Numbered from the stretch's first letter, positions 5,441 to 53,205 are shown. The stretch is DNA of 64,000 nt from Longimicrobium sp. (GCA_036389795.1 DASVWD010000057.1:22681-86680); one strand, 5' to 3'. Notes: a model not told the origin generated them from the letters alone. Translations and numbers: made by a program.

Positions 5441-5558
5441 GGCCGCGGTCTACGCGGCCGGGGGAGGCGAGGTTGCAGGCCGCGCGGCTCCGCGACGAGC
5501 TGGGGAAGCCTCTCCCCGAGCCGGGAGAGGCTTCCCGTCGCCCTGATGCGGGACGGGC

Positions 5559-5867
5559 TCAGTCCGCGCACATGCACTGGCTGGACCCGCAGACGCGCCC
5601 CTGTCGATGCACGCCGGCGCTGTCGTGGTCGGCGGACGCGGCCGGAGCAGGCGCCGCGGCGGGCTCCGGCGCGCGGCCCATCGCCTTGAGCGTGGCGCCC
5701 GAGCCCAGCAGGACGCCGGAGAGCAGCGGCACCAGCCCGCGCCTGAGCCGCGCGAGCGCCTCGGCAGAGACGTGGACCCTGAGCCCGGCCACGGAGTCTC
5801 CCCGGATCTCGAAGCCGCCCTTGCGCGACGGCGCGGGCCGCCGCGGATCGCCGTTCGTCGCCACCAT
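5559..5867 (-). CDS. Hypothetical protein, 102 aa, with a C-terminal CGSSQCMC motif
   Basis: Very high GC3 in this frame. AAGGAGGG immediately upstream of the ATG. No family recognised. Confidence 0.45.
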   Translation of the reverse strand: MVATNGDPRRPAPSRKGGFEIRGDSVAGLRVHVSAEALARLRRGLVPLLSGVLLGSGATLKAMGRAPEPAAAPAPAASADHDSAGVHRQGRVCGSSQCMCAD

Positions 5868-6037
5868 GCCCTCCTTGAGCCGCGCTCAGCCAGGTGAACA
5901 CAGGCGCCGCGGACCTCCCGCGCGCCTCCGCCGGGGTCCGGGCGCCCGCACGACGCACGCCGCTTTCCTGGGAATCGATCGAGAAGACCTTTCGCGAGCT
6001 CATCCTATCCGCGCCGAAGCCGGTCTCCACGCCGAAC

Positions 6038-6091
6038 CAGCCTGCGCAGGCAGGCTTCTCGCCGTTGTTGCCGCGGCTTCAGCCGCCTTCG
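6038..6091. repeat. Repeat family G copy 1 (core GTTGTTGCCGCGGCTTCAGCCGCCTT)
   Basis: A near-identical 26-nt core recurs at 30569-30594. Both copies lie just 3' of a minus-strand stop codon (pnp, uvrD). Confidence 0.7.
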
Positions 6092-6181
6092 AGCCATACC
6101 GGCACCCACGCACGAAAGCCCCTCCCCCGGCGAACCGGGAGAGGGGCTTCGTCCGTCGAGCCGCCGCGGCGCCGGGCGCCG

Positions 6182-8290
6182 TCAGTCGGCCGCCTGGCCG
6201 CGCTCGGCGAGCTCCTTGAGCGCCGCCTTGCGGGAGAGGCGCAGCCGCCCCTTCTCGTCGATGTGCAGGAGCTTCACGGGGATCTGGTCGCCCTTCTTGA
6301 CCACGTCCTCGGTCTTGTCCACCCGGCCCTCCTGCAGCTCGGAGATGTGCACCAGCCCCTCGGTGCCGGGGGTGATCTCCACGAAGGCGCCGAACGCGGT
6401 GGTGCTCTTCACCGTGCCGTCGTAGATGCGGCCCACCTCGGGCTCCTCGGTGAGCCCCATGATCATCTTGCGCGCGCGCTCGCCGCCCTCGCCGCTCACG
6501 CTGGCGATGGTGACGGTGCCGTCGTCGTCGATGTTGATGGTGGCGCCCGTGGCGTCCTGGATGCCGCGGATCGTCTTCCCCTTGGGCCCGATCACCTCGC
6601 CGATCTTCGACGGGTTGATCTTGACGGTGATGATGCGCGGCGCGAACGGGGAGAGCTCCGCGCGCGGCTCGGGGAGCGCCTGCTCCATCAGCCCCAGGAT
6701 GTGCATCCGCGCGCGGTGCGCCTTCTCGAGCGCCTCGCGCATGATCTCCAGGGTGAGCCCCTCGATCTTGATGTCCATCTGGATCGAGGTGACGCCGCCG
6801 CGGGTGCCGGCCACCTTGAAGTCCATGTCGCCCAGCGCGTCCTCGGCGCCCAGGATGTCGGTGAGCACCGCCACCCGGTCACCCTCCTTGATGAGCCCCA
6901 TCGCCACGCCCGCCACGGCCGCGCGCATCGGCACGCCCGCGTCCATCAGCGCCAGCGACCCCGCGCACACCGAGGCCATCGACGAGCTGCCGTTCGACTC
7001 CAGGATGTCGCTCACCACGCGGATGGTGTAGGGGAACTCGTCCACCGGCGGCAGGAGCGGCTCCAGCGCCCGCTCGGCCAGCGCGCCGTGGCCGATCTCG
7101 CGGCGGCTGGTGCCGCGCATGGGGCGCACCTCGCCGGTGGCGTACGGCGGGAAGTTGTAGTGCAGCATGAAGCTCTTGTTCTGCTGCTGCGCGTAGTCGA
7201 TGGTGTCGTACGCCTGCGCGTCGTCCTGCGTGCCCAGCGTGGCCGTGCCCAGCGCCTGCGTCTGGCCGCGGGTGAAGAGCGCCGAGCCGTGCGTGCGCGG
7301 CAGCACCCCCACCTCGATGTGGATCGGGCGCACCTCGTCGGGGCCGCGCCCGTCGGAGCGGACACCCTCGACCAGGATCATCTCGCGCATCTCGCGCTTC
7401 TCGATGTCCTTGACCACGCTGCCGGCGTCCTTCTCCGCGTTCTCGAACTCCTCCGCCAGCGCGGCCACCACGTCGGCCTTGAGCTCGGCGATGGCGTTGT
7501 TGCGCTCGCTCTTGTCGGCGATGCGCAGCGCCTGCCGGACGCGCTCCTCGGCCAGGGCGTCCACGCGCGCCCGGAAGGCGGGGTCGATCTCGCGCGGCGT
7601 CCACTCCATCGTGGGCGGGATCTCCACCTGCGCCATCAGCTCGCGCTGGATCCCGATCAGCTCCTTGATCCCGGCGTGCGCCACCACCAGCCCCTCGGCG
7701 ATGTCCTCCTCGGGCACCTCCAGCGCGCCGCCCTCCACCATCATGATCGCGTCTTCCGAGCCGGCCACGATCACGTCGACGTCGCTGTACTCGAGCTGCT
7801 GGAAGGTGGGGTTCAGGACCCACTGCCCCTGGATGCGCCCCACGCGCACCGCGGCGATCGGCCCCGCGAAGGGGATGCGCGAGAGGGAGAGGGCCAGCGA
7901 CGCGCCGGTGATCCCCAGCACGTCGGCGTCGTTCTCCTGGTCGGCCGACACCACGGTGACGAAGATCTGCGTCTCGTTGGCGAAGCCGTCGGGGAAGAGC
8001 GGCCTGAGCGGCCGGTCCACCAGGCGGGCGGAGAGGATCTCCTTGTCGGAGGGGCGCCCCTCGCGCTTGATGAAGCCGCCGGGGAACTTCCCCGCGGCGT
8101 AGGTCCGCTCGCGGTACTCGACCGTGAGGGGGAAGAAGGGAAGGTGCGTCGGCGTCTCCTGAGCCGTCGCGGTGCACAGCACCATGGTCTCCCCGTACAT
8201 GATGGTGCACGACCCGTCCGCCAGACGGGCCATCTTCCCCGTCTCGAGGGTGAGGTTCCGCCCCGCGAACTGCCTCTCCAGCTTTGCCAT
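6182..8290 (-). CDS. pnp: Polyribonucleotide nucleotidyltransferase (PNPase)
   Basis: Start at the internal ATG ([21 protein letters not shown]). Two RNase PH domains plus KH and S1 tail. Confidence 0.97.
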
Positions 8291-8409
8291 TTTCCGGTTT
8301 CCGTTCTCTTGGTTGCCTGGGGAAGGCCGCGAAGACGGCCCGCGCTCCCCAGCGACGCGGACCGGTAGCTTTTCTGTCTCCGCTTTTGGTCTGCACAAGA
8401 ACGCGCGAA

Positions 8410-8436
8410 GGCCGCACGGAGCATGCCCGTGCGGCC
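8410..8436 (-). terminator. rpsO-pnp intergenic hairpin (attenuator/processing-type)
   Basis: 10-bp stem GGCCGCACGG / CCGTGCGGCC with a 7-nt loop. Its position matches the rpsO terminator/pnp leader of other bacteria. No strong T tract. Confidence 0.4.
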
Positions 8437-8557
8437 CTCGCGAGAGCCCTCTAGCCGTCGTCGATCCGACGCGGTCGCTGGCCGGCGCGCGAAAGCGCCA
8501 TGCCCGCCGTCCGCACCGCCGAAGAGCCGGCTTCCATCCGTCGTCCGCCCCTGCCGC

Positions 8558-8827
8558 TCAGTGGCGCAGCCCCAGCTCGGTGATCAGCGCGCGGTACCCC
8601 TCGAGGTCGTTGCGGCGCAGGTAGTCGAGCAGGCGGCGGCGCTTGCCCACCATCTTGAGCAGGCCGCGGCGCGAGTGATGGTCCTTCTTGTGGGTGCGGA
8701 AGTGGTCGGTCAGGTCGTTGATGCGCGCCGTGAGCAGCGCGATCTGCACCTTGGTGGACCCCCGGTCGTTCTCGCCGAGCTGGTACTTCTTGATGATCTC
8801 GTCGCGGTTCTCGCGCGTCAGGGCCAT
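8558..8827 (-). CDS. rpsO: 30S ribosomal protein S15
   Basis: Internal ATG. Sequence [43 protein letters not shown]...; 89 aa. AGGAGG Shine-Dalgarno. Confidence 0.97.
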
Positions 8828-8924
8828 CGATCGGACCTCCTGAAGAGTCTGATGCTGGTCAGGGAGTTGCCGATCCACGATGCTTCGTTTCGGAAACTTC
8901 GCCGGATCAACTTGCAAGCCGTGG

Positions 8925-8953
8925 ATTCTAACACATCGTCCTCTTTCGCACAA
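8925..8953 (-). promoter_or_regulatory. Sigma-70-type promoter for rpsO (TTGTGC-N17-TAGAAT, with TGT extended -10)
   Basis: Read on the minus strand: TTGTGCgaaagaggacgatgtgtTAGAAT, about 95 nt upstream of the rpsO ATG. Confidence 0.55.
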
Positions 8954-9108
8954 CCGCTGGAGCTCGCCCGGTAGCGGGGGAGGTTGAAATGGCCTTGTCG
9001 TACGCTACTCTTCTTCGCCCGCTTCCGGTCCGGCGGGTGTCGATTCGACCGCTCTTCGTTCGACGCACGGGTGCAGAGGCGTGAACAACCCATCCAGAGG
9101 AGACCTCC

Positions 9109-9519
9109 ATGCAGATCACCGTCGAGACCCTCGTGAACGCCGATCTGAACCAGGTCTGGGATGCCTGGAACACCCCCGCCGACATCGAGCGGTGGAATGC
9201 CGCCCACGACGACTGGCACACCACCCGGAGCACCGTGGACCTCCGGGAGGGCGGGAAGTTCCTGGCGCGCATGGAGGCGAAGGACGGCAGTGAAGGCTTC
9301 GACTTCGAGGGCACCTATACTCGCGTGGTGCCGCGCGAGGCCATCGAGTACCGGATGAGCGACGGCCGCGAGGTCAGGGTCGAGTTCCTCGAAGCCGCCG
9401 GCGGCGTGAGGGTGAGGGAAACGTTCGACGCGGAGACGGAGAACTCACCCGAGCTCCAGCGCGCGGGCTGGCAGGCCATCCTGGACAACTTCGCCCGGTA
9501 CGTAGAGGCGAAGGGCTGA
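9109..9519 (+). CDS. SRPBCC/AHSA1 (Aha1-domain) family protein
   Basis: 136 aa. Pattern VWDAWT.P..I..W... and GG.F...M.A.DGS.GFDF.G.Y is typical of this family. Confidence 0.8.
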   Translation: MQITVETLVNADLNQVWDAWNTPADIERWNAAHDDWHTTRSTVDLREGGKFLARMEAKDGSEGFDFEGTYTRVVPREAIEYRMSDGREVRVEFLEAAGGVRVRETFDAETENSPELQRAGWQAILDNFARYVEAKG

Positions 9520-9604
9520 GCGAACGCACGGCGGCAGCGATCCGGGAGATCGAGGGGAGACGAGGGGGAGCGTTCAGCCTGGAAGACAGCTCCGCCGCAG
9601 GCAT

Positions 9605-10000
9605 CTACCACGGCTCGAAGCAGTCGTAGTTGCGCTGCGCCACGATCCTGCCGCCCTGGAGCTCGATGAACATCGCGGAATGGGCGCGCATGGTGGCGCC
9701 GGCCGGGAGCGAGCCGACGTCCACGGCCAGGACGCCGGTCCACAGCACCTCCACCGCCACCCGGTCGCCGCTCGCCACCTCGCCGCGCAGCTCGTAGCGC
9801 TGGCTGGCCACCACCTGCCTGCCGCGCGCGTTCGCCTCCAGCAGGGCGGCCAGGTCGCGGCGGGCACCGTGGGGGACGATGCGGTTCGGGAACTCCTCCT
9901 GCACCACGTCGGGCGCGAAGAACCCGGTGACGTCGGCGTTCTGCTCCAGCGCCTCGAAGTAGCGCCGCACGGTGGCGAGGTTCTCGTTCTCGGCCGACAT
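9605..10000 (-). CDS. NTF2-like/SnoaL-like (ketosteroid isomerase fold) protein
   Basis: 131 aa. Sequence N..TVRRYFEALE...F.PDVV..E and RIV..R.Y.D. Confidence 0.7.
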   Translation of the reverse strand: MSAENENLATVRRYFEALEQNADVTGFFAPDVVQEEFPNRIVPHGARRDLAALLEANARGRQVVASQRYELRGEVASGDRVAVEVLWTGVLAVDVGSLPAGATMRAHSAMFIELQGGRIVAQRNYDCFEPW

Positions 10001-10042
10001 GGTCCGTGACGTTGAAGGAGGATGCGCCGCGGGTGCCCTCGT

Positions 10043-11011
10043 CTACAGCCCGAGCATCCCGCGGCCGATACGCTCGTCCTCGCGCATGGCCTCGACCAGC
10101 GACTCGACGGAGTGGAAGGGGCGGATGTCGCGGATGCGCGCGGCGAAGTCCACCCGCACGCGGTCGCCGTACAGGTCGCCGCTCCAGTCGAGCAGGTACA
10201 GCTCCACCGTGGGCGCGAAGCCGGCGAAGGTGGGGCGCGGCCCCAGGTGCAGCAGCCCGGGGAGCCGCTCGCCCCGCACCCAGCCGTGCACGGCGTAGAT
10301 CCCCTCCTTCGGCAGCATCTTGTCGGGGGCGCCCACGTCGATGTTGGCGGTGGGGAAGCCCAGCTCGCGCCCCTTGCGCTCGCCGCGCACCACGATCCCC
10401 TCCAGCGAGTACTGCCGCCCCAGCAGCGGCGCGGCGCCCGCCACGTCGCCCTCCGCCAGCAGCCTGCGGATGCGGCTGGACGAGACGGCGCCGCCCTCGA
10501 TCTCGATCGCCTCCACCACGTCCACCCCGAAGCCCAGCTCCCGGCCGATCTCGACGAGCGTGTCCACCGTCCCTTCCCGCCCCTTCCCGAAGCCGTGGTC
10601 GTAGCCGATCACCAGCTCGTCCATCCCCACCCGGCCGATCAGGATCTCCTCGACGAAGCGGCGCGCCGGGTACTGCTGGAGGGTGCGGGTGAAGGGGACG
10701 AACACCACGTACTCCAGCCCCGACTCGGCCAGGATCTCCCGCTTCTCGCGCTGCGTGGTCAGCAGCGGCGGCGCGTCTTCCGGACGGACGATGCGCAGGG
10801 GATGCGGGTGGAAGGTGACCAGGATGCTCCGCCCGCCGGTGCGCCCGGCGCGCCGCCCGATCTCGGCGAGCACCTCGCGGTGGCCGCGGTGCACGCCGTC
10901 GAAGGTGCCCACGGTCACCACCGCCGGCCGCCCGTCGCGCGGGAGGGCGGGCGGGAGCGCGGGGTCGATGGCGTACGGCGCCGGCCAGAGGTAGCGGGGG
11001 TCGATCGGCAT
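10043..11011 (-). CDS. ribF: Bifunctional riboflavin kinase/FAD synthetase
   Basis: Start ATG at 11009-11011 (MPIDPRY) overlaps the truB stop as TGATG. Motifs GTFDGVHRGH, SSSRIR and GFPTAN. Confidence 0.93.
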   Translation of the reverse strand: MPIDPRYLWPAPYAIDPALPPALPRDGRPAVVTVGTFDGVHRGHREVLAEIGRRAGRTGGRSILVTFHPHPLRIVRPEDAPPLLTTQREKREILAESGLEYVVFVPFTRTLQQYPARRFVEEILIGRVGMDELVIGYDHGFGKGREGTVDTLVEIGRELGFGVDVVEAIEIEGGAVSSSRIRRLLAEGDVAGAAPLLGRQYSLEGIVVRGERKGRELGFPTANIDVGAPDKMLPKEGIYAVHGWVRGERLPGLLHLGPRPTFAGFAPTVELYLLDWSGDLYGDRVRVDFAARIRDIRPFHSVESLVEAMREDERIGRGMLGL

Positions 11012-16369: not shown

Positions 16370-17779
16370 TTACCCCTCTGTCAACCCCTCCGCCGGCCCG
16401 GCGCCGTCGGTCTGGGCGCTGGTATCCTCCGACGCCTCGCTGGCGCCGGCCATCGCCTGCGACGCCACCGGCTCGGCGGCGCCCTCCTCCTCCTCGACCG
16501 TCATCTCCTCGATCAGCGCCAGGATGCGGTCGGCCTCGGCGGGGCCGATGGCCGGGATGCGCAGCAGGTCCTCGCGGTCCAGGTCGATGATGTCGAAGAA
16601 GGTGTCGTACCCCGCCGCCTCCAGCGCCGCCAGCGTGGCCGGCGCCAGGTCCAGCTCCTTGAGCGGGAAGTCGGTGTTGTCGTACTCGGTCTCGCCGCCG
16701 CCGCCGAAGAGGGCGCGCTCGGCGCCGTGCTCCAGCCACTCGCGCGAGCCGTACAGGTCCAGCTGCCAGCCGATCAGCTGGCTGGCCAGGCGCACGTTCT
16801 GCCCGTTGCGGCCGATGGCCAGCGACAGCTGGTCCTCGTCGACGATGGCCGTCATGGTGCGCGCCTCGTAGTCGGAGATCACCTTGGCCACCCGCGCCGG
16901 GGCCAGCGCGCGCTTGGCGAAGATCTCCGGGTCGGGGTGCCAGGGGACGATGTCGATCCTTTCTCCGCCCAGCTCCTGCACCACCGCGCGCACGCGGCTC
17001 CCCTTGAGCCCCACGCAGGCGCCCACCGGGTCGATCGACTCGTCGCGCGAACTGACGGCCAGCTTGCTGCGGCCGCCCACCTCGCGGCTGACGGCGCGGA
17101 TCTCCACGATCCCCTGCTGGATCTCGGGGACCTCCAGCTTGAAGAGCGCGGCCACGAAGAGCGGGTCGGCGCGAGAGAGGATCAGGCGCGGGCCCTTGGG
17201 CGTCTCCTCCACCTTCTTGAGCACGGCGCGGATCGTCTCGCCCTGGCGGAAGCGCTCGCGCGGGTTCTGCTCCTTCCAGGGGATGATGGCGTCGGCCTCG
17301 CGGGCGCGGTTGAGCAGCACCACCAGCTTGCCGCGCTCCACCTGCTGCACCTCGCCCGAGAGCAACTCGCCCACGCGGTGCTCGTACTCGTCGCGGATCT
17401 TCTGGCGCTCGCCCTCGCGCACGCGCTGCAGGATGCGCTGCTTGGCGGCCATCACCGCGTTGCGGCCGAACTGGGCGAACTCGACCGGCACCTCCATCAC
17501 GTCGCCGACCTCGAAGTCGGGGTCGTCCCAGCGGGCCTCCTCCAGCGAGATCTCGCGCGAGGGGTCCTCGACCTCGGCGACGACTTCCTTGAGCACGGTG
17601 ATGTCGATCTTCCCCGTGGCCTCGTCGATCTCGATCTCGGCCTCCACGTTGGGGCCGTAGCGCTTGGCGAGGGCCGCCAGGATGCCGTCCTTGATCAGGT
17701 CGTTGAGCTCGTCGCGAGAGATGGCCTTGTTGGCCGTCATCTCGCGGAAGGCCGCGAGAACCTGCGTCGCGTTGTTCAT
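16370..17779 (-). CDS. nusA: Transcription termination/antitermination factor NusA
   Basis: Start at the internal ATG 17779 (MNNATQVLAAFREM) with a GGAAGAGGA Shine-Dalgarno. S1, two KH domains and an acidic C-terminal HhH region. Confidence 0.96.
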   Translation of the reverse strand: MNNATQVLAAFREMTANKAISRDELNDLIKDGILAALAKRYGPNVEAEIEIDEATGKIDITVLKEVVAEVEDPSREISLEEARWDDPDFEVGDVMEVPVEFAQFGRNAVMAAKQRILQRVREGERQKIRDEYEHRVGELLSGEVQQVERGKLVVLLNRAREADAIIPWKEQNPRERFRQGETIRAVLKKVEETPKGPRLILSRADPLFVAALFKLEVPEIQQGIVEIRAVSREVGGRSKLAVSSRDESIDPVGACVGLKGSRVRAVVQELGGERIDIVPWHPDPEIFAKRALAPARVAKVISDYEARTMTAIVDEDQLSLAIGRNGQNVRLASQLIGWQLDLYGSREWLEHGAERALFGGGGETEYDNTDFPLKELDLAPATLAALEAAGYDTFFDIIDLDREDLLRIPAIGPAEADRILALIEEMTVEEEEGAAEPVASQAMAGASEASEDTSAQTDGAGPAEGLTEG

Positions 17780-19961: not shown

Positions 19962-20840
19962 TCAATCCGCTGCGCGCTCCCGCCCGGCGTCCGCGCGCCC
20001 GGCGTCGGGCTCCTCGTCGCCCGAGGGCCAGTAGTAGCGCCGCATCTGCGCGGCGACGCCGTCGAGGTCGGGGAAGAGCTTGCGCTCGTCGATGGCGCAG
20101 AGGTCGAGCTGGTCGCGCACGTAGTTCACGCGGCCCGCCGGGATGATGTAGCGGGTGAGCGCGTCCACCAGCCCCTCCTGCCGCAGGATCTCGTCGAACG
20201 CGTGCGTCTTGTCGGTCGAGAAGGTGAAGGTGGCGGCCTGCGCGATGATGCGGTCGTCCAGCGCCGGCGGGTCGAGCATGCAGACGAAGCGGGCCGCGCG
20301 CGGCACCTCGTCGCCCAGGAGCTGGCGCAGGTCGCGGATGCCGCGCTCGCGGAGCATGGCGTCCAGGTCTTCCACCAGGAACGCCAGCGGCGGCAGGCCG
20401 AAGTGCTCGTGCACCTTCCGCCAGTTGAGCCGCCACACCACCCGGTCGCCCTCGCACTCGCCGCCCAGCGTGGCGAAGTGCGCGGCGATGAGCGGCGAGT
20501 AGCTCCAGTCCAGCAGCCGCGTGGGCAGCCCGTGGTGCTGCGCGGTCACCAGCAGCTCCCACTCGTTGGCGGGCTGGTGCTCCAGGAACGGGCGCGAGTA
20601 GCGGATGAAGTTGCGGAGGATGTGCTCCTCCAGGTGGCGCTTGCTGTGTGGCGGACGGGTCCCCCCCAGCCGGTCCAGGCTGGTGAGCAGCGGATAGCGC
20701 GCGTCGCCGGCGCCGCGGTACACCGAGGTGTCGCGGATGCGCCCGCTCACCGGGTCGTGCTCGTCGGGCGTCACCCGGTCCAGCAGCTCGCCCAGGCTCT
20801 CGATGCGGACTTCCTCGATGTCGTCGAAACGCGTCTCCAT
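19962..20840 (-). CDS. FRG-domain protein
   Basis: Start at the internal ATG (METRFDDIEEV). Motifs VYRGAGDARYPLLTSLDR and QHHGLPTRLLDWSYSPLIAAHFA are the FRG signature as I remember it. Confidence 0.75.
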   Translation of the reverse strand: METRFDDIEEVRIESLGELLDRVTPDEHDPVSGRIRDTSVYRGAGDARYPLLTSLDRLGGTRPPHSKRHLEEHILRNFIRYSRPFLEHQPANEWELLVTAQHHGLPTRLLDWSYSPLIAAHFATLGGECEGDRVVWRLNWRKVHEHFGLPPLAFLVEDLDAMLRERGIRDLRQLLGDEVPRAARFVCMLDPPALDDRIIAQAATFTFSTDKTHAFDEILRQEGLVDALTRYIIPAGRVNYVRDQLDLCAIDERKLFPDLDGVAAQMRRYYWPSGDEEPDAGRADAGRERAAD

Positions 20841-21074
20841 GCGCCCATCCGCGGCCGGTCCACGGCGCGGAGGATGGAAGAAGCGTTCCGGACGCTCCAG
20901 GTAGAGTACAGGAGAGAAGGTGCTCGATCCCGCCTGCTTCCAGGAAGATGCAAATCCTTTCACGGCGTGGAAGAAAATCTTCCACGCGATGGAAGGTGTC
21001 GGTCGGGCTAGAGATTGGTGACGGAGAACGCCGTGATTTTACCGGTTAAAATCACAGGCGGGCGGTATCCAGGA

Positions 21075-21302
21075 TCATGCGGCATCCCGATGAGCGCGGA
21101 TGACCGCAGCCATCGCCCGGAGGGCACGGTTCACCGACTCCGCGTCGGGGAATACATCGGCCACTTCGGGGTCGATCGGCACCAGGTTCACCCCTTCGGC
21201 GTAGCGGGCGGCGAACCTGCCCCGCACTCCGGCCCGAAGCTCCTCGGCGGTGAAGCCGTACTCCTCCCGCAGATCGTCCTCAGAGATCGATGCTTTGCTC
21301 AT
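21075..21302 (-). CDS. brnA: BrnA-like antitoxin
   Basis: 75 aa. Sequence EYGFT..ELRAGVRGRFAARYAEGVNLVPIDPEVADVFPDAESVNRALRAM. Overlaps brnT by 23 nt. Confidence 0.75.
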   Translation of the reverse strand: MSKASISEDDLREEYGFTAEELRAGVRGRFAARYAEGVNLVPIDPEVADVFPDAESVNRALRAMAAVIRAHRDAA

Positions 21303-21567
21303 AGCTCCTCCTCTCGCGCGGCGTCATCAGTCTCGCGCTGATCAAGCGTACCGTATCACCACGGTATGTCAAGCTGACGATCAAGAACCGGCCCGCAGAG
21401 GACCGGCCGAAAAGCAGGAGACGCTCCTCGGTCTCCGAGTGATCCGGATCGGGCCGGTCGGTCGAGAGCGGATCGCCCAAAACCGTAGCGGCTTCTCCGA
21501 ACGATACGCCGTGCTTCCGCAGGTTCTGCTCTGCTTTCTCCGAATCCCACTCGACGCGTAGTCCCAT
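21280..21567 (-). CDS. brnT: BrnT (DUF497) toxin
   Basis: Sequence VEWDSEKAEQNLRKHGVSFGEAATVLGDP...DPDHSETEERLLLFG...RLISARLMTPRERRSY. Confidence 0.88.
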   Translation of the reverse strand: MGLRVEWDSEKAEQNLRKHGVSFGEAATVLGDPLSTDRPDPDHSETEERLLLFGRSSAGRFLIVSLTYRGDTVRLISARLMTPRERRSYEQSIDL

Positions 21568-21732
21568 TTCGCCAATGTGAAAGCGGATCCATCTCCAAGC
21601 AAGAACAGCCCCACAAACCAGTTCGTTCAGTCAGCGCTCAGAAAAGAAAAGCCGGGAGCATCACACACTCAAAACCGACGTGTGATGATCCCGGACTCTG
21701 CTCGCCGCGCCGCCTCCTGCCGCTGGATGAGG

Positions 21733-22479
21733 CTACGCGGGAACGACGAAGGGTGTCGAATCGCGGATGCCGAGCACGCCCATCTGCCGCGCGGAGGAGC
21801 CGCCGCGGTGCGAGAAGAAGTCCGGCGGACCGCAGCGCGTGCAGTGCGCGGAGACGCTCACCTGCGCGGCGGACAGGCCCAGCGCCAGCGCGCGCTCCAC
21901 GACGGCCGCGCGCAGGTCGATCGGCGTCTTCGACGGCGGGGGCTCGCGGTCGGGGTGGACGGCGGCGTGGACCTCGGGGCCGACCTCGTAGCACCGGCCG
22001 CAGATCGCGGGGCCGCAGTGCAGCCACAGGCGCTCCGGGGCCGACTGCCAGCTCTCCGCCACGCGGTTGACCCCGCGCTCCACGATCCCCGCCGCCACGC
22101 CGCGCCACCCCGCGTGCAGCAGCGCGACGACGGTGTGGTCGGGGTCGACCACGGAGACGGGGATGCAGTCCGCCACGCTGACGGCGAGCAGGACGCCGGG
22201 GCGGTCGGTGACGTGCCCGTCGAAGCCGTCCATCACCACGATCCCGGGCGCGCCGCGCTCGCGGTGGATCCACAGGTCGGCCGCGTGCACCTGCCGGGCG
22301 TGGGCCGCCACCTCCATCCCCGTCGCGGCGAGGAGGCTACGCCAGCGGCCGAGGACCTTCCCCACCGGCTGGGCGCCCGAGAGCCCCAGGTCGAACTCCC
22401 CGTCCTCCCCGCGCCCGGTGGTCCCCTGCACCAGCCAGGGGAAGCGCTCCTCCCACTCCGGGTGCACCCAGAGCGGCAC
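21733..22479 (-). CDS. pgeF: Peptidoglycan editing factor PgeF/YfiH (DUF152 laccase-domain protein)
   Basis: Motifs VSVADCIPV, LHAGWRG, CGRCYEVG and FFSHRG. GTG start. Confidence 0.9.
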   Translation of the reverse strand: MPLWVHPEWEERFPWLVQGTTGRGEDGEFDLGLSGAQPVGKVLGRWRSLLAATGMEVAAHARQVHAADLWIHRERGAPGIVVMDGFDGHVTDRPGVLLAVSVADCIPVSVVDPDHTVVALLHAGWRGVAAGIVERGVNRVAESWQSAPERLWLHCGPAICGRCYEVGPEVHAAVHPDREPPPSKTPIDLRAAVVERALALGLSAAQVSVSAHCTRCGPPDFFSHRGGSSARQMGVLGIRDSTPFVVPA

Positions 22480-50511: not shown

Positions 50512-50949
50512 CTAGCGGGATCCGATGTTGAGGGGTTCCGGGCTCTGCGCCTGGTGCGGGTGCTCGGACCCCGCGTACACCTTGAGCTTCTGGCGCATCT
50601 GCCGGCCCAGGGCGCCCTTGGGGAGCATCCCCTTGACCGCCAGCTCCACCACGCGCTCGGGGTGCTTGGCCAGCATCTCCTTGAAGGGGATGAACTTCTC
50701 GTGGCCCATGTACCCCGTGTGGCGGAAGTAGGTCTTCTGGTCGGCCTTGCTCCCGGTGAGCTGCACCTTGTCGGCGTTGACCACCACCACGTAGTCGCCG
50801 GTGTCCAGGTGCGGGGTGTAGGTCGGCTTGTGCTTGCCGCGGAGGATGCGCGCAACTTCCGTCGCCACGCGGCCCAGGACCTTCCCGGCGGCGTCGACGA
50901 CGTACCACTTGCGCTCGATCTCTCCGGCCTTGACGGAATACGTCTTCAT
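50512..50949 (-). CDS. rplM: 50S ribosomal protein L13
   Basis: Internal ATG. Sequence [27 protein letters not shown]... Confidence 0.97.
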
Positions 50950-51079
50950 GAGGCTTTCCGCGTTCGGCGCACCCCACCGGGCGCGCCTGCCGCCGGCCAC
51001 GCGCCGGCGCTGGAAGTAATGAAAAAATCACCGCCCCGGCGGGCCCGAGGCGGACGAGGCGTGGTCGGGACAGACGGGT

Positions 51080-51108
51080 AGAATAGCGGAACGGCCGCCG
51101 CGTGTCAA
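51080..51108 (-). promoter_or_regulatory. Sigma-70-type promoter for rplM-rpsI (TTGACA-N17-TATTCT)
   Basis: Minus strand reads TTGACAcgcggcggccgttccgcTATTCT. The -35 hexamer lies in the loop of the upstream terminator hairpin. Confidence 0.55.
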
Positions 51109-51120
51109 CCCGCGGCGGCC
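51093..51120 (-). terminator. Terminator hairpin of the low-GC cassette
   Basis: Perfect 10-bp stem GGCCGCCGCG / CGCGGCGGCC with an 8-nt loop, 14 nt after the 203-aa gene stop. Confidence 0.5.
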
Positions 51121-51133
51121 GTCCCGGTCCACG

Positions 51134-51745
51134 TCACGCGGGGTTCGCGGAGAGCCACTGCGTGACGAGGCCCACCAGGTCCTGGAAGGTCAGTTCTTCC
51201 GCCCGGAGCCCGACCCTTCTCGCCAGACGAGGGAGCCGCTCCATGAAGCGCAGGTACCTCTCGTACATGACGCTCCCGCCCGGCAACGTCCGGGGCGGGC
51301 TCCAGGTCACCAGCACGTCCCGCACGCAACGGATCAGTTCCGCCTCGTCGCCGCCGTGGGCGCGGATGTCCTGTCCCGCGATATCGCTGCAGAAAGCCTG
51401 ATAGCGGTAGCGCTCCCGGTCGAAGATGATGCAGGCTTTCACGCGCTGCTTCGAGTCGCCGAAGTGCTTCGCACCAAGAAAGAGACCGAGTTCCAGCGGC
51501 ATGTTGAATCTGGGAAGACGCGAGCCTTCATCCAGTTCCGTGCGCGAGATGTCGTGCACGCCGTACCTCGACTCCTCGACGATTCGAACGATCTTGTGAA
51601 TGCGAACTTCACTCCCGTCTTCGACCTCGAGCGCGCACCGCGGTATGAAGCCGCAGTCCTGAACCGCAAACACGAGGGCCCGAAACAGCCGGTGGTACTC
51701 GTGGTCGAACGGACAGTTGATGAAGACGTTTCGTTCGTAGGGCAT
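51134..51745 (-). CDS. Uncharacterised protein with a TIR-like/nucleoside 2-deoxyribosyltransferase-like N-terminal pattern
   Basis: 203 aa. Motifs VFINCPFD, IVRIVEESRYGVHDISR, FNMPLELGLFLGAK and ACIIFD. Local GC is about 57% (two 60-nt lines counted). Fold assignment is inference only. Confidence 0.7.
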   Translation of the reverse strand: MPYERNVFINCPFDHEYHRLFRALVFAVQDCGFIPRCALEVEDGSEVRIHKIVRIVEESRYGVHDISRTELDEGSRLPRFNMPLELGLFLGAKHFGDSKQRVKACIIFDRERYRYQAFCSDIAGQDIRAHGGDEAELIRCVRDVLVTWSPPRTLPGGSVMYERYLRFMERLPRLARRVGLRAEELTFQDLVGLVTQWLSANPA

Positions 51746-51748
51746 GCG

Positions 51749-51937
51749 CTAGGCGGCACTCCGGTCGCGGCCACCCTTGCGCCGGTCTCGTGCCGCAGCA
51801 CGCGCGGCGGCCTCCTCGGCCAGGCGATCTTCTTCCATCACCTCCAGAACCGCCCGGCGAGCCTCTTCAGGGGTGAAGTGCGTGGGCGGAAACGGCGGCG
51901 GCAGGATCTCGCGCAGGGGCTTCTTCTTCGTGGCCAT
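51749..51937 (-). CDS. Small protein (62 aa) coupled to the 203-aa gene
   Basis: GGAG lies 8 nt upstream of the ATG. The stop is 3 nt before the downstream ATG. Sequence MATKKKPLREILPPPFPPTHFTPEEARRAVLEVMEEDRL... Confidence 0.55.
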   Translation of the reverse strand: MATKKKPLREILPPPFPPTHFTPEEARRAVLEVMEEDRLAEEAAARAAARDRRKGGRDRSAA

Positions 51938-52051
51938 GGAGGTCTCCGGGTGCCGGGGTCGAACGCACGACCCGGAACTTACACTCCGGACGACCGTCGC
52001 GGAAGGCTCCGCGACGAAGCGGCCAGCGGCCGGACGGAAGGCGCGAAAACG

Positions 52052-52909
52052 CTACTGGAGGAAGGTCTCGAGGAAGCGGGCGCGGGACTGGTGGCGGAGC
52101 CGGAGCAGCGCCTTCTCCTTGATCTGCCGGACGCGCTCGCGGGTGATGCCGAAGCTCTCGCCGATCTGCTCCAGCGTCATCGGCTCGGTGTCGCCCAGGC
52201 CGAAGTACAGGCGCAGCACCTTGGCCTCGCGCTCGGTGAGCGTGGAGAGGGCGTCGTCGATGCTGCGCTTGAGCGCGTGCTCGTAGACTTCGTCGTCGGG
52301 GCCGGGGGAGAACTGGTCGGAGAGGTAGTCGAGGAGCTGGCCGTCTTCGCCGGGGACCAGGGGTGCGTCGAGGGAGAGGTAGACCTGCGACATCGCCAGG
52401 GCGTGGCTGATCTCGTCCTCGGGGACGTCCAGCTCTTCGGCGATCTCCTGCAGCGTGGGCTCGCGCCCCAGCTCCTGCGTCATGGCCGAGGAGCGCCGCC
52501 CGATGCGGTGCACGGCGCCGGCGCGCGAGAGGGGGACGCGCACGATGCGCGACTGCTCGGCCAGGGCCTGCAGGATCGCCTGGCGGATCCACCACACGGC
52601 GTAGGAGATGAACTTGATCCCCTTGGTCTCGTCGAACTTCCGGGCGGCGCGGATCAGCCCGATGTTCCCCTCGTTGATGAGGTCGGCCAGCGACACGCCC
52701 TGGTTCTGGTACTTCTTGGCCACCGCCACCACGAAGCGCAGGTTGGAGCGGACCAGGTTCTCCAGCGCGTCGCCGTCGCCGTCGCGGATGCGCCGGGCGA
52801 GGTTCCCCTCCTCGTCGCGGTCGATGAGCGGGTAGGCGCTGATCTCGCGGAGGTACTGGTCCAGCGATTCCGACTCGGCTGCGATCTTCTTGGGCGGGCT
52901 GAACGTCAT
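52052..52909 (-). CDS. RNA polymerase sigma factor, RpoD/sigma-70 family (short, 285 aa)
   Basis: Internal ATG 52909. Regions 2-4: NLRFVVAVAKKY, GNIGLIRAARKFD, YAVWWIRQAI and TLEQIGESFGITRERVRQI. Confidence 0.93.
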   Translation of the reverse strand: MTFSPPKKIAAESESLDQYLREISAYPLIDRDEEGNLARRIRDGDGDALENLVRSNLRFVVAVAKKYQNQGVSLADLINEGNIGLIRAARKFDETKGIKFISYAVWWIRQAILQALAEQSRIVRVPLSRAGAVHRIGRRSSAMTQELGREPTLQEIAEELDVPEDEISHALAMSQVYLSLDAPLVPGEDGQLLDYLSDQFSPGPDDEVYEHALKRSIDDALSTLTEREAKVLRLYFGLGDTEPMTLEQIGESFGITRERVRQIKEKALLRLRHQSRARFLETFLQ

Positions 52910-53205
52910 GGGGTGCTCCGGCTCACGGAACAGGGACGGCAGCTTCGATGGAGATCCGGGAGGAAACTGCGCGGGGTTGGCGCTGGCGACCGGACGGGAC
53001 CGAAAGACGGGCTCCGGGTGAGACGCACGGCCGCCGGAGCGAGGCGGGGACTTCCCCCGGGGCCGGATCACCGGCTGGAACATCGCAGGCCCGCCCCCAT
53101 GGTGTCAAGCCCTCCCCCCGGGAATTCCCCCGGGGAGCGCGGCGGGTGCAAAAACCCGCGTTGCCATTGCACCGCCTTGACCGCTCCGGCGGGGCGGGAG
53201 GAGCC

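Follow-up and report, generated by a model that had tools for sequence, protein, structure and literature searches.

Gene pair upstream of rplM

A stretch of 64,000 nucleotides of Longimicrobium sp. DNA (GCA_036389795.1, DASVWD010000057.1:22681-86680), hereafter called the window and numbered from its first letter, contains a pair of minus-strand genes immediately upstream of the rplM-rpsI operon. The larger gene encodes a standalone protein of 203 residues with a predicted Toll/interleukin-1 receptor (TIR) fold, and the smaller one a 62-residue partner. Together they make up a two-gene module based on a TIR protein, with a partner motif not described before; the finding is real and beyond chance. 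TIR enzymes play a central part in the immune responses of bacteria, plants and animals, and in bacterial immunity such enzymes destroy or rewire nicotinamide adenine dinucleotide (NAD+). The pair is organized as follows.

51134..51745, minus strand: gene of the standalone protein with the predicted TIR fold, 203 residues, found as an open reading frame (ORF) and from its translation
51746..51748, minus strand: 3-nt spacer from the partner stop codon to the ATG of the TIR-like gene, read from the sequence (TAG, cgc, ATG)
51749..51937, minus strand: partner gene, 62 residues, found as an ORF; a conserved N-terminal motif, then a 21-residue Ala/Arg/Glu-rich tail
51815..51937, minus strand: codons 1-41 of the partner, strand-loop-helix motif, located by a hidden Markov model (HMM) of the motif

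The original prediction, made from the nucleotide sequence alone, had described two minus-strand genes with a 3-nt gap between housekeeping loci. Both genes are present, and all the peptides that it quoted (VFINCPFD, RYGVHDISR, FNMPLELGLFLGAK and ACIIFD) are found in the translation. The flanks consist of rplM-rpsI, encoding L13 and S9, on the downstream side, and of a sigma-70-family gene (regions 1.2, 2, 3 and 4) together with the signal peptidase gene lepB on the upstream side. The spacing between the partner stop and the TIR-like ATG suggests translational coupling; in five other loci (L086, L087, L088, L089 and L090) the two genes overlap or are separated by gaps of 0-1 nt. A GGAG is located 9-12 nt ahead of the partner's ATG. 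A reading of the two genes as chance ORFs was rejected because both are conserved.

The base composition is unusual as claimed, but the proposed GC content of ~57% was too low. The 203-residue gene has 62.7% GC against a window mean of 72.5%, with a lowest 300-nt window of 59.3%, and falls in the lowest 1.2% of the window's 600-nt windows. The 62-residue gene has 70.4% GC, which is not low, and stands out only by its GC content at third codon positions (GC3), 78%. The GC3 of the 203-residue gene is 81%, compared to 96-98% in rplM, rpsI, rpsB, tsf and the sigma factor gene. The window DNA recurs in soil and biocrust metagenomes.

Predicted fold and active site of the 203-residue protein

Searches of Pfam, NCBIfam, PADLOC and the PDB sequences gave no match for the 203-residue window protein. 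It does not reach the curated gathering threshold of the Pfam TIR families considered (PF01582, PF13676, PF10137, PF08937, PF18567 and PF08357). Sub-threshold matches to PF10137 were found in 16 of 39 relatives, with a best E-value of 4e-4, and the best PF10137 score across scans was ~19 bits versus the cut-off of 24.7 bits. In line with the undescribed type proposed in the original prediction, neither protein of the pair is covered by a curated family or a PADLOC defence model.

The AlphaFold2 model, built on a 39-sequence family alignment, has a predicted local distance difference test (pLDDT) score of 92.8 and a predicted template modelling (pTM) score of 0.90, and consists of an α/β core and two C-terminal helices. 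The strands comprise residues 6-10, 34-36, 61-65, 104-109 and 127-129, with helices in between; the predicted TIR core spans approximately residues 1-150 and the two-helix C-terminal subdomain residues 157-200. The core of the model is the flavodoxin-like α/β core with five parallel strands that defines TIR domains. Structural similarity search of the PDB with Foldseek revealed that nearly all of the top 30 matches are TIR domains, with a probability of 1.00 and template modelling (TM) scores of about 0.5, including short prokaryotic Argonaute TIR-APAZ (SPARTA), SfSTING, the plant proteins RPP1, RPS4 and RUN1, AbTir and TIR-SAVED. The nucleoside 2-deoxyribosyltransferases (NDTs) rank below them, with an E-value of about 2e-2 versus 3e-4, and Pfam gave no match to PF05014 and its relatives. 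In a viral structure library the top match is a Cap12/Pycsar-TIR protein. Structure prediction thus shows a TIR fold for the 203-residue protein, and the earlier guess of a TIR- or NDT-like fold agrees with this ranking, in which TIR domains come first.

A search of the PDB sequences with the family profile gave the TIR domain of SfSTING (PDB 7un8) as the best match, with PRFNMPxELGxFLGA aligned with PRDNVVFEFGLFLGA and PRFNMPxELG paired with PRDNVVFEFG. In this alignment R79, N81 and E85 correspond to R78, N80 and E84 of SfSTING, of which R78 and N80 hold the phosphodiester and the ribose of NAD+, and E84 is catalytic (PMC9402430). Residues F8, N10, R48, D65, S67, N81, E85, G87, S120, D121 and G124 are invariant in the 39-member alignment, and R79 is conserved in at least 90% of it. 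The predicted active-site residues are F8, N10, R79, N81 and E85. As judged from the alignments, the R-x-N-x3-E constellation of the SfSTING/Cap12 NAD+ pocket, together with the putative catalytic Glu, is kept in the 203-residue protein, which has this Glu at the start of helix αC and the ribose/phosphate ligands, as in enzymatic TIRs. E85 is also the conserved Glu after a hydrophobic strand to which the original prediction had pointed.

It is very improbable that the protein lacks catalytic activity and acts as a TIR/SLOG-like ligand sensor or scaffold whose pocket binds a nucleotide signal without cleavage. Rossmannoid relatives such as SLOG do serve, like many animal TIRs, as binders or scaffolds, and fusions to canonical TIR_2 domains could couple a signal producer with a sensor. 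However, the Glu is invariant at the catalytic position, alongside the ribose/phosphate ligands of an active NADase, and the standard 200-residue form has no output domain.

Some family members possess additional domains. In tandem fusions of 356-419 residues (P0134, P0171, P0204, P0228 and P0247), a canonical TIR_2 (and SEFIR-like) domain is located N-terminal to the TIR-like domain. Another set (P0125, P0130, P0174, P0190, P0197 and P0199) shares a conserved C-terminal domain of ~110 residues (FVIL...YxQ...LEYQxGxLDxHY) with no Pfam match. It is predicted as a small β/α domain, with a pLDDT above 90 over residues 200-309 of P0190. Foldseek search with the AlphaFold2 model of P0190 returned TIR-type matches only, and the extra C-terminal domain matched nothing.

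The small partner and its conserved motif

The partner starts with a ~40-residue strand-loop-helix motif, R-x-[IV]-x-x-P-x-K-x-G-x-h-x4-h-R-x-A-[VI]-x-x-V, which reads KKKPLREILPPPFPPTHFTPEEARRAVLEVMEE in the window and scores 49.8 bits against the motif HMM. With a minimum score of 14 bits and a distance limit of 450 nt from the TIR-like gene on the same strand, we found the motif adjoining this gene in 73 of 93 loci, 51 times upstream and 22 times downstream, against a background maximum of 9.5 bits in ~1.1 Mb of flanks, five strong extra copies excepted. The association was replicated in a set of 80 metagenome loci outside the training data: among the 59 with both flanks available, 30 have the motif beside the TIR-like gene (background maximum 10.8 bits). 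Both counts speak for the original claim that the two genes form a pair.

In other Longimicrobium genomes, partner orthologues precede the TIR-like gene, and a 61-residue protein from another metagenome (P0293) is 93% identical to the window partner. The divergence of the partner co-varies with that of the TIR-like protein, with a Spearman coefficient of 0.40 that was reached by 0 of 500 permutations; in the codons of the motif, pN/pS is below 1 (0.3-0.84). The motif profile, used on its own as a query, retrieved solely proteins of 41-71 residues without a Pfam domain. Of three such proteins that were checked, one lies beside an intact TIR-like gene, one beside an N-terminally truncated one and one beside neither. 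Comparison of the motif with solved structures yielded nothing significant, the matches being to a helix of proteasome Rpt6, and the motif HMM did not detect the motif in the TIR-like protein. Altogether, conservation beside the TIR-like gene across phyla supports the small gene as a genuine cognate partner.

The partners differ in what follows the motif, as counted in 71 loci.

At most 15 residues after the motif: 21 loci; no further content
16-45 residues: 27 loci; short charged tail (21 residues in the window)
46-110 residues: 17 loci; DUF2188, a weak URI/GIY-YIG-like module, or a second degenerate repeat
More than 110 residues: 6 loci; three cGAS/DncV-like nucleotidyltransferases (CD-NTases), one TPR protein, and two proteins with an unassigned domain

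The motif and at most 45 further residues make up 48 of the 71 partners, and the tails of these minimal partners are often Lys/Arg-rich. DUF2188 is found in some partners with E-values of 1e-8 to 2e-21, and in two long partners the motif is followed by an unassigned domain, the two domains being of 370-560 residues. The motif-CD-NTase fusions lie directly downstream of the TIR-like gene (L033, L037 and L049; PADLOC Cyclase, 1e-127). In these fusions the match to the cyclase model starts with residue 48, so that the motif forms an extra N-terminal peptide on the CD-NTase. The partner thus follows a simple logic, a short constant motif and then variable modules.

In some relatives the motif is fused to sensor-type modules (CD-NTase, TPR), which suits a subunit for docking or regulation no less than the simple immunity protein of the originally suggested toxin/immunity pair. 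The partner might even be an activator or sensor adaptor instead of an inhibitor. Its motif would tether the TIR effector to the following sensing module, and the 62-residue version would sense the trigger itself, for example nucleic acid via its basic tail. Consistent with such a role, the motif stands at the N-terminus of a CD-NTase, a TPR array, DUF2188, a URI-like module and two unassigned domains, Lys/Arg-rich tails are frequent in the minimal partners, and TIR enzymes generally need induced oligomerization for activity (PMC9402430). Nevertheless, we consider an activator unlikely, given that a tail of 0-21 residues offers little for sensing, with 21 loci having no more than 15 residues after the motif, and that a small upstream gene with start/stop coupling is the classic antitoxin arrangement.

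Motif proteins also occur in other settings. At L188, positions 2600-2995 hold an N-terminally truncated TIR-like ORF that starts with MPLEFG, lacks approximately the first 80 residues and retains the Glu; it adjoins an intact motif protein and a DUF433/DUF5615 pair, and may be a decaying copy. A larger, recurrent cassette of the Poribacteria type (L003, positions 5534-10579; L186; L187) consists of a motif protein, HTH_37, the TIR-like protein, a second motif protein, a Gp49/HigB-like protein, a TPR protein of ~650 residues and an AAA_15/AAA_21 ATPase. As L187 has the motif protein, Gp49 and TPR genes without a TIR-like gene, the motif protein may serve other partners too. The motif seemed by eye to open the ~110-residue C-terminal extension of the fused members (P0125, P0130, P0190 and others); the motif HMM was not significant, and this assignment was rejected.

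Distribution and mobility of the TIR-like family

The TIR-like family has at least 7,809 clusters at 90% identity and 2,749 at 50% identity, 1,792 of the latter with E-values of at most 1e-10. Its members are typically 200-215 residues long and unnamed. The family is covered by neither Pfam, NCBIfam nor PADLOC. TIR censuses work via the Pfam TIR models and known partners, and as the family escapes all three resources, it is probably missing from such censuses.

At 50-59% identity, relatives are spread over more than 15 phyla or classes, among them Poribacteria, Acidobacteriota, Planctomycetota, Verrucomicrobiota, Latescibacterota, Nitrospirota, Desulfobacterota, Ignavibacteria, Alphaproteobacteria and Gammaproteobacteria. 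The hosts are bacteria of soils, sponges (as symbionts) and sediments, and the genes are also found on rhizobial and sphingomonad plasmids. Several genomes have two family copies. The family is present on 17 plasmids, and a Sphingomonas plasmid carries the pair among the cargo genes beside TniA/B/Q transposition genes. A phage origin was rejected: none of 50,697 phage genomes matched, and in IMG/VR the family is confined to 13 contigs. In 82 of 85 loci the TIR-like gene is ~8 GC points below its flanks, in hosts ranging from 37% to 72% GC, which makes low GC a family trait and not a sign of recent arrival in the present genome. These sequence data support the view that the family behaves as mobile accessory DNA with a patchy distribution across phyla.

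Two loci, L091 and L004, share the same flanks (CoaE, a short-chain dehydrogenase ... GFO_IDH_MocA, cation efflux). L091 differs by an extra AAA_35 ATPase, an Eco57I-like gene and an IS200/IS605 element around the TIR-like pair, which indicates a variable hotspot.

Inheritance of the locus in Longimicrobium

At least five other Longimicrobium genomes have the pair immediately ahead of rplM; their RplM is 90-94% and their TIR-like protein 64-71% identical to the window versions. As all of them hold the pair at the same place, a recent acquisition into the interval is unsupported. By this comparison, the pair is old and inherited in the Longimicrobium lineage, a fixed resident immediately upstream of the rplM operon. 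The horizontal acquisition proposed originally would hence apply to the deep history of the family, but not to this interval in this lineage. Synteny is only partly kept, for the position next to rplM is conserved in the relatives whereas the upstream neighbour is not. The window has the sigma-70-family gene and lepB (51938-53083), whereas three genomes (L001, L090 and L092) have a PhoR/PhoB-like two-component system there, and L090 has a phosphate porin as well. The differing upstream neighbours indicate a rearrangement breakpoint immediately upstream of the small gene.

Such a stable position invites comparison with a housekeeping enzyme, namely an N-glycosidase of the NDT, Rcl or LOG type that acts on nucleosides or nucleotides and works with a small accessory protein beside the ribosomal operon for growth-linked salvage. 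The place upstream of rplM is kept in six Longimicrobium genomes, many family loci have metabolic neighbours, and Foldseek also returns NDTs and CMP hydrolases. We regard this assignment as improbable. The NDT matches are weaker than those to TIR domains (E-values of about 2e-2 and 3e-4), the R-x-N-x3-E pocket fits a TIR NADase, and the distribution is patchy and multi-copy and includes plasmids and one transposon, with a universal GC deficit. Moreover, the gene contexts beyond Longimicrobium are mutually unrelated, and the links to CD-NTase and TIR_2 point to immunity.

Comparison with known systems

The TIR domains of Cap12 in the cyclic-oligonucleotide-based anti-phage signalling system (CBASS) and of Pycsar effectors (PF10137; SfSTING, PDB 7un8) are the best sequence-profile relatives of the 203-residue protein, with the same fold and the same spacing of the R-x-N-x3-E pocket and catalytic Glu. 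CBASS effectors adjoin a CD-NTase, and so do a few members of the TIR-like family: a cyclase is present in 3 of the 185 loci fetched by TIR-like homology. The other 182, the window included, have none, and no CD-NTase lies beside the window pair. Unlike CBASS and Pycsar effectors, the TIR-like protein has no STING, SAVED or cyclic nucleoside monophosphate-binding domain, just a two-helix tail of ~50 residues, and the small motif-bearing partner stands where the cyclase would be in CBASS. The top structural matches are the SPARTA TIR-APAZ proteins (PDB 8oz6 and 8i87), in which the TIR core and the following helices superpose over ~170 residues. Unlike SPARTA, however, the pair has neither an APAZ domain nor an Argonaute, and the sequence identity is 12-17%.

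Like ThsB of Thoeris, the protein is a standalone TIR of ~200 residues in a two-gene operon. It might accordingly produce an ADP-ribose-derived signal upon infection, without NAD+ depletion, to which the partner, its DUF2188, URI or TPR versions, or an unlinked protein responds as effector. In keeping with this, bacterial ThsB proteins are standalone TIRs of similar size, fusions of TIR_2 to the TIR-like domain exist, and some partners carry DUF2188, which a 2025 census of TIR signalling systems lists as a predicted Thoeris effector (10.64898/2025.12.03.692087). The DUF2188-linked TIRs there are canonical TIR_2 proteins, however, and the family's motifs are absent from the stored tables of the census. 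In addition, 48 of 71 partners have no more than 45 residues beyond the motif and lack any domain for ligand binding or killing; the 62-residue window partner has no domain, and partners are usually too small for an effector. The nearest sequence and profile relatives are effector TIRs (Cap12/Pycsar) and not ThsB, and PADLOC gave no Thoeris match. A Thoeris-like signalling role is thus distinctly unlikely.

The arrangement also resembles type II toxin-antitoxin systems, including the NAD+-targeting RES-Xre and NatT-NatR, in which a small upstream gene is likewise coupled to a larger enzyme gene. The tightly spaced small adjacent gene typical of that class is found here too. As in type II systems, the pair is multi-copy, mobile, plasmid-borne and GC-poor, the reverse gene order occurs, and the partner evolves with the enzyme. 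Unlike RES-Xre and NatT-NatR, the enzyme is predicted to adopt a TIR fold and not a RES or ADP-ribosyltransferase (ART) fold, and the partner has no helix-turn-helix (HTH), ribbon-helix-helix (RHH) or AbrB domain. A further parallel is given by the effector-associated adaptor domains of NTP-dependent conflict systems, a concept of the Aravind laboratory. They are likewise short constant modules that are fused to many domains and coupled to a fixed effector. They differ from the partner motif in that the pairing here is heterotypic and the motif is a strand-loop-helix of ~40 residues instead of a helical bundle.

Proposed mechanism

We propose that the pair is a two-gene conflict module, either of the anti-phage/abortive-infection type or toxin-antitoxin-like, built on a standalone TIR-fold enzyme. 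The TIR-like protein would be an enzyme of the effector (Cap12-like) type that uses E85 to split the bond between nicotinamide and ribose in NAD+ or a close analogue. The partner motif would dock on the TIR-like protein. The minimal partner, composed of the motif and a short charged tail, would most likely restrain the enzyme until a trigger displaces or destroys the partner, similar to an antitoxin; an activating or sensing role of the minimal partner is the alternative direction. Larger partners would couple the enzyme to sensors. We give a probability of roughly 0.55 to this reading as a whole, that is, an NAD+-directed effector-type TIR N-glycosidase that is docked and held inactive by the minimal partner, with larger partners coupling it to sensors.

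Several findings weigh against this proposal. Concerning the enzyme, the window protein gave no match to the Pfam TIR models at E-values up to 1 and nothing in PADLOC, and the TM-scores of about 0.5 are moderate. The partner has no recognizable DNA-binding or antitoxin domain according to Pfam, NCBIfam and structure matching of the motif, about a quarter to a half of the loci have no recognizable partner motif, and one motif protein has no TIR-like neighbour. The sequence was not found in any of the RNA runs searched. Stable inheritance beside ribosomal-protein genes is unusual for a defence cassette, and the neighbours of family members are mostly ordinary metabolic or housekeeping genes. Speaking for the proposal, some loci are near ABC-type AAA_15/AAA_21 ATPases, a restriction-like gene or insertion sequence (IS) elements. 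A crude census of 148 neighbours gave AAA_15/AAA_21 ATPases in few loci and otherwise mixed metabolism. Defence-type ATPases are present in only about 4 of ~17 sampled loci. The enrichment in defence islands that had been raised with the original prediction is therefore not established; the crude census is too weak, and we do not claim it.

On a tentative note, the motif is possibly an undescribed docking adaptor that wires a dedicated TIR effector by direct contact to interchangeable partners, namely the tail alone, DUF2188, the URI-like nuclease module, TPR arrays and even the CBASS cyclase. This would be a modular immune architecture alongside, and in part instead of, the second-messenger coupling of CBASS and Thoeris. 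If true, thousands of genomes from many phyla would have such an adaptor architecture. Under our proposal, the module could add a new class of TIR-based system, reveal the control of a TIR effector that has no nucleotide-sensor domain, and explain the extra N-terminal peptide on the CBASS cyclase. Experiments are feasible because the hosts of the family include cultivated genera (Geomonas, Microbulbifer, Bradyrhizobium, Rhizobium, Sphingomonas and Microvirga).

Other features of the window

Beyond the 3' end of the TIR-like gene lies a hairpin, which the original prediction had taken as the boundary of the pair.

51091..51122, minus strand: perfect 12-bp hairpin with an 8-nt loop (51111-51122 pairs with 51091-51102), 12 nt past the TIR-like stop codon, found in the sequence

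The perfect hairpin exists, though with a stem of 12 bp and not the 10 bp claimed, and it is not a demonstrated boundary. A promoter scan revealed that its loop and 3' arm coincide with the -35 box (TTGACA) and the spacer of the rplM promoter TTGACA-17-TATTCT, which was graded strong. The hairpin is not followed by a T-run, and its 3' arm is not conserved in the five related genomes compared. Due to the promoter overlap, the absent T-run and the unconserved 3' arm, its role as cassette boundary or terminator was rejected. An Rfam scan of 50800-52200 gave as sole match a sub-threshold sodF small RNA, with 26.5 bits versus a cut-off of 46.

The 5' leader of rplM (50950-51110, minus strand) is very highly conserved in six Longimicrobium genomes (the window, L001, L006, L007, L090 and L092). 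Besides the promoter TTGACA-17-TATTCT and an invariant GTCTGTCCCGACCACGCCT, it contains a terminator-like hairpin at 51053-51031, which has a T-run, and two more GC hairpins before the ATG. It has no Rfam match and could represent a leader for L13/S9 autoregulation, or an attenuator, that has not been described before.

A weak tblastn match to residues 62-100 of the TIR-like protein at 17561-17680 on the plus strand, with 40% identity over 40 residues and an E-value of 0.057, is probably due to chance. Another low-GC stretch, 8550-9450, includes a gene at 8558-8953 (minus strand) that was read, by eye only, as rpsO, encoding ribosomal protein S15; low GC in the window is thus not confined to accessory genes. 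A second low-GC spot at 20750-21850, with a GC fraction of 0.61-0.63, overlaps a locus at 19962-21567 on the minus strand. In this locus a BrnT ribonuclease toxin gene (21280-21567, minus strand; PF04365, 4e-25) adjoins an FRG-domain gene (19962-20963; PF08867, 2.5e-26), and from these domain matches it looks like another accessory or toxin-antitoxin-type locus.

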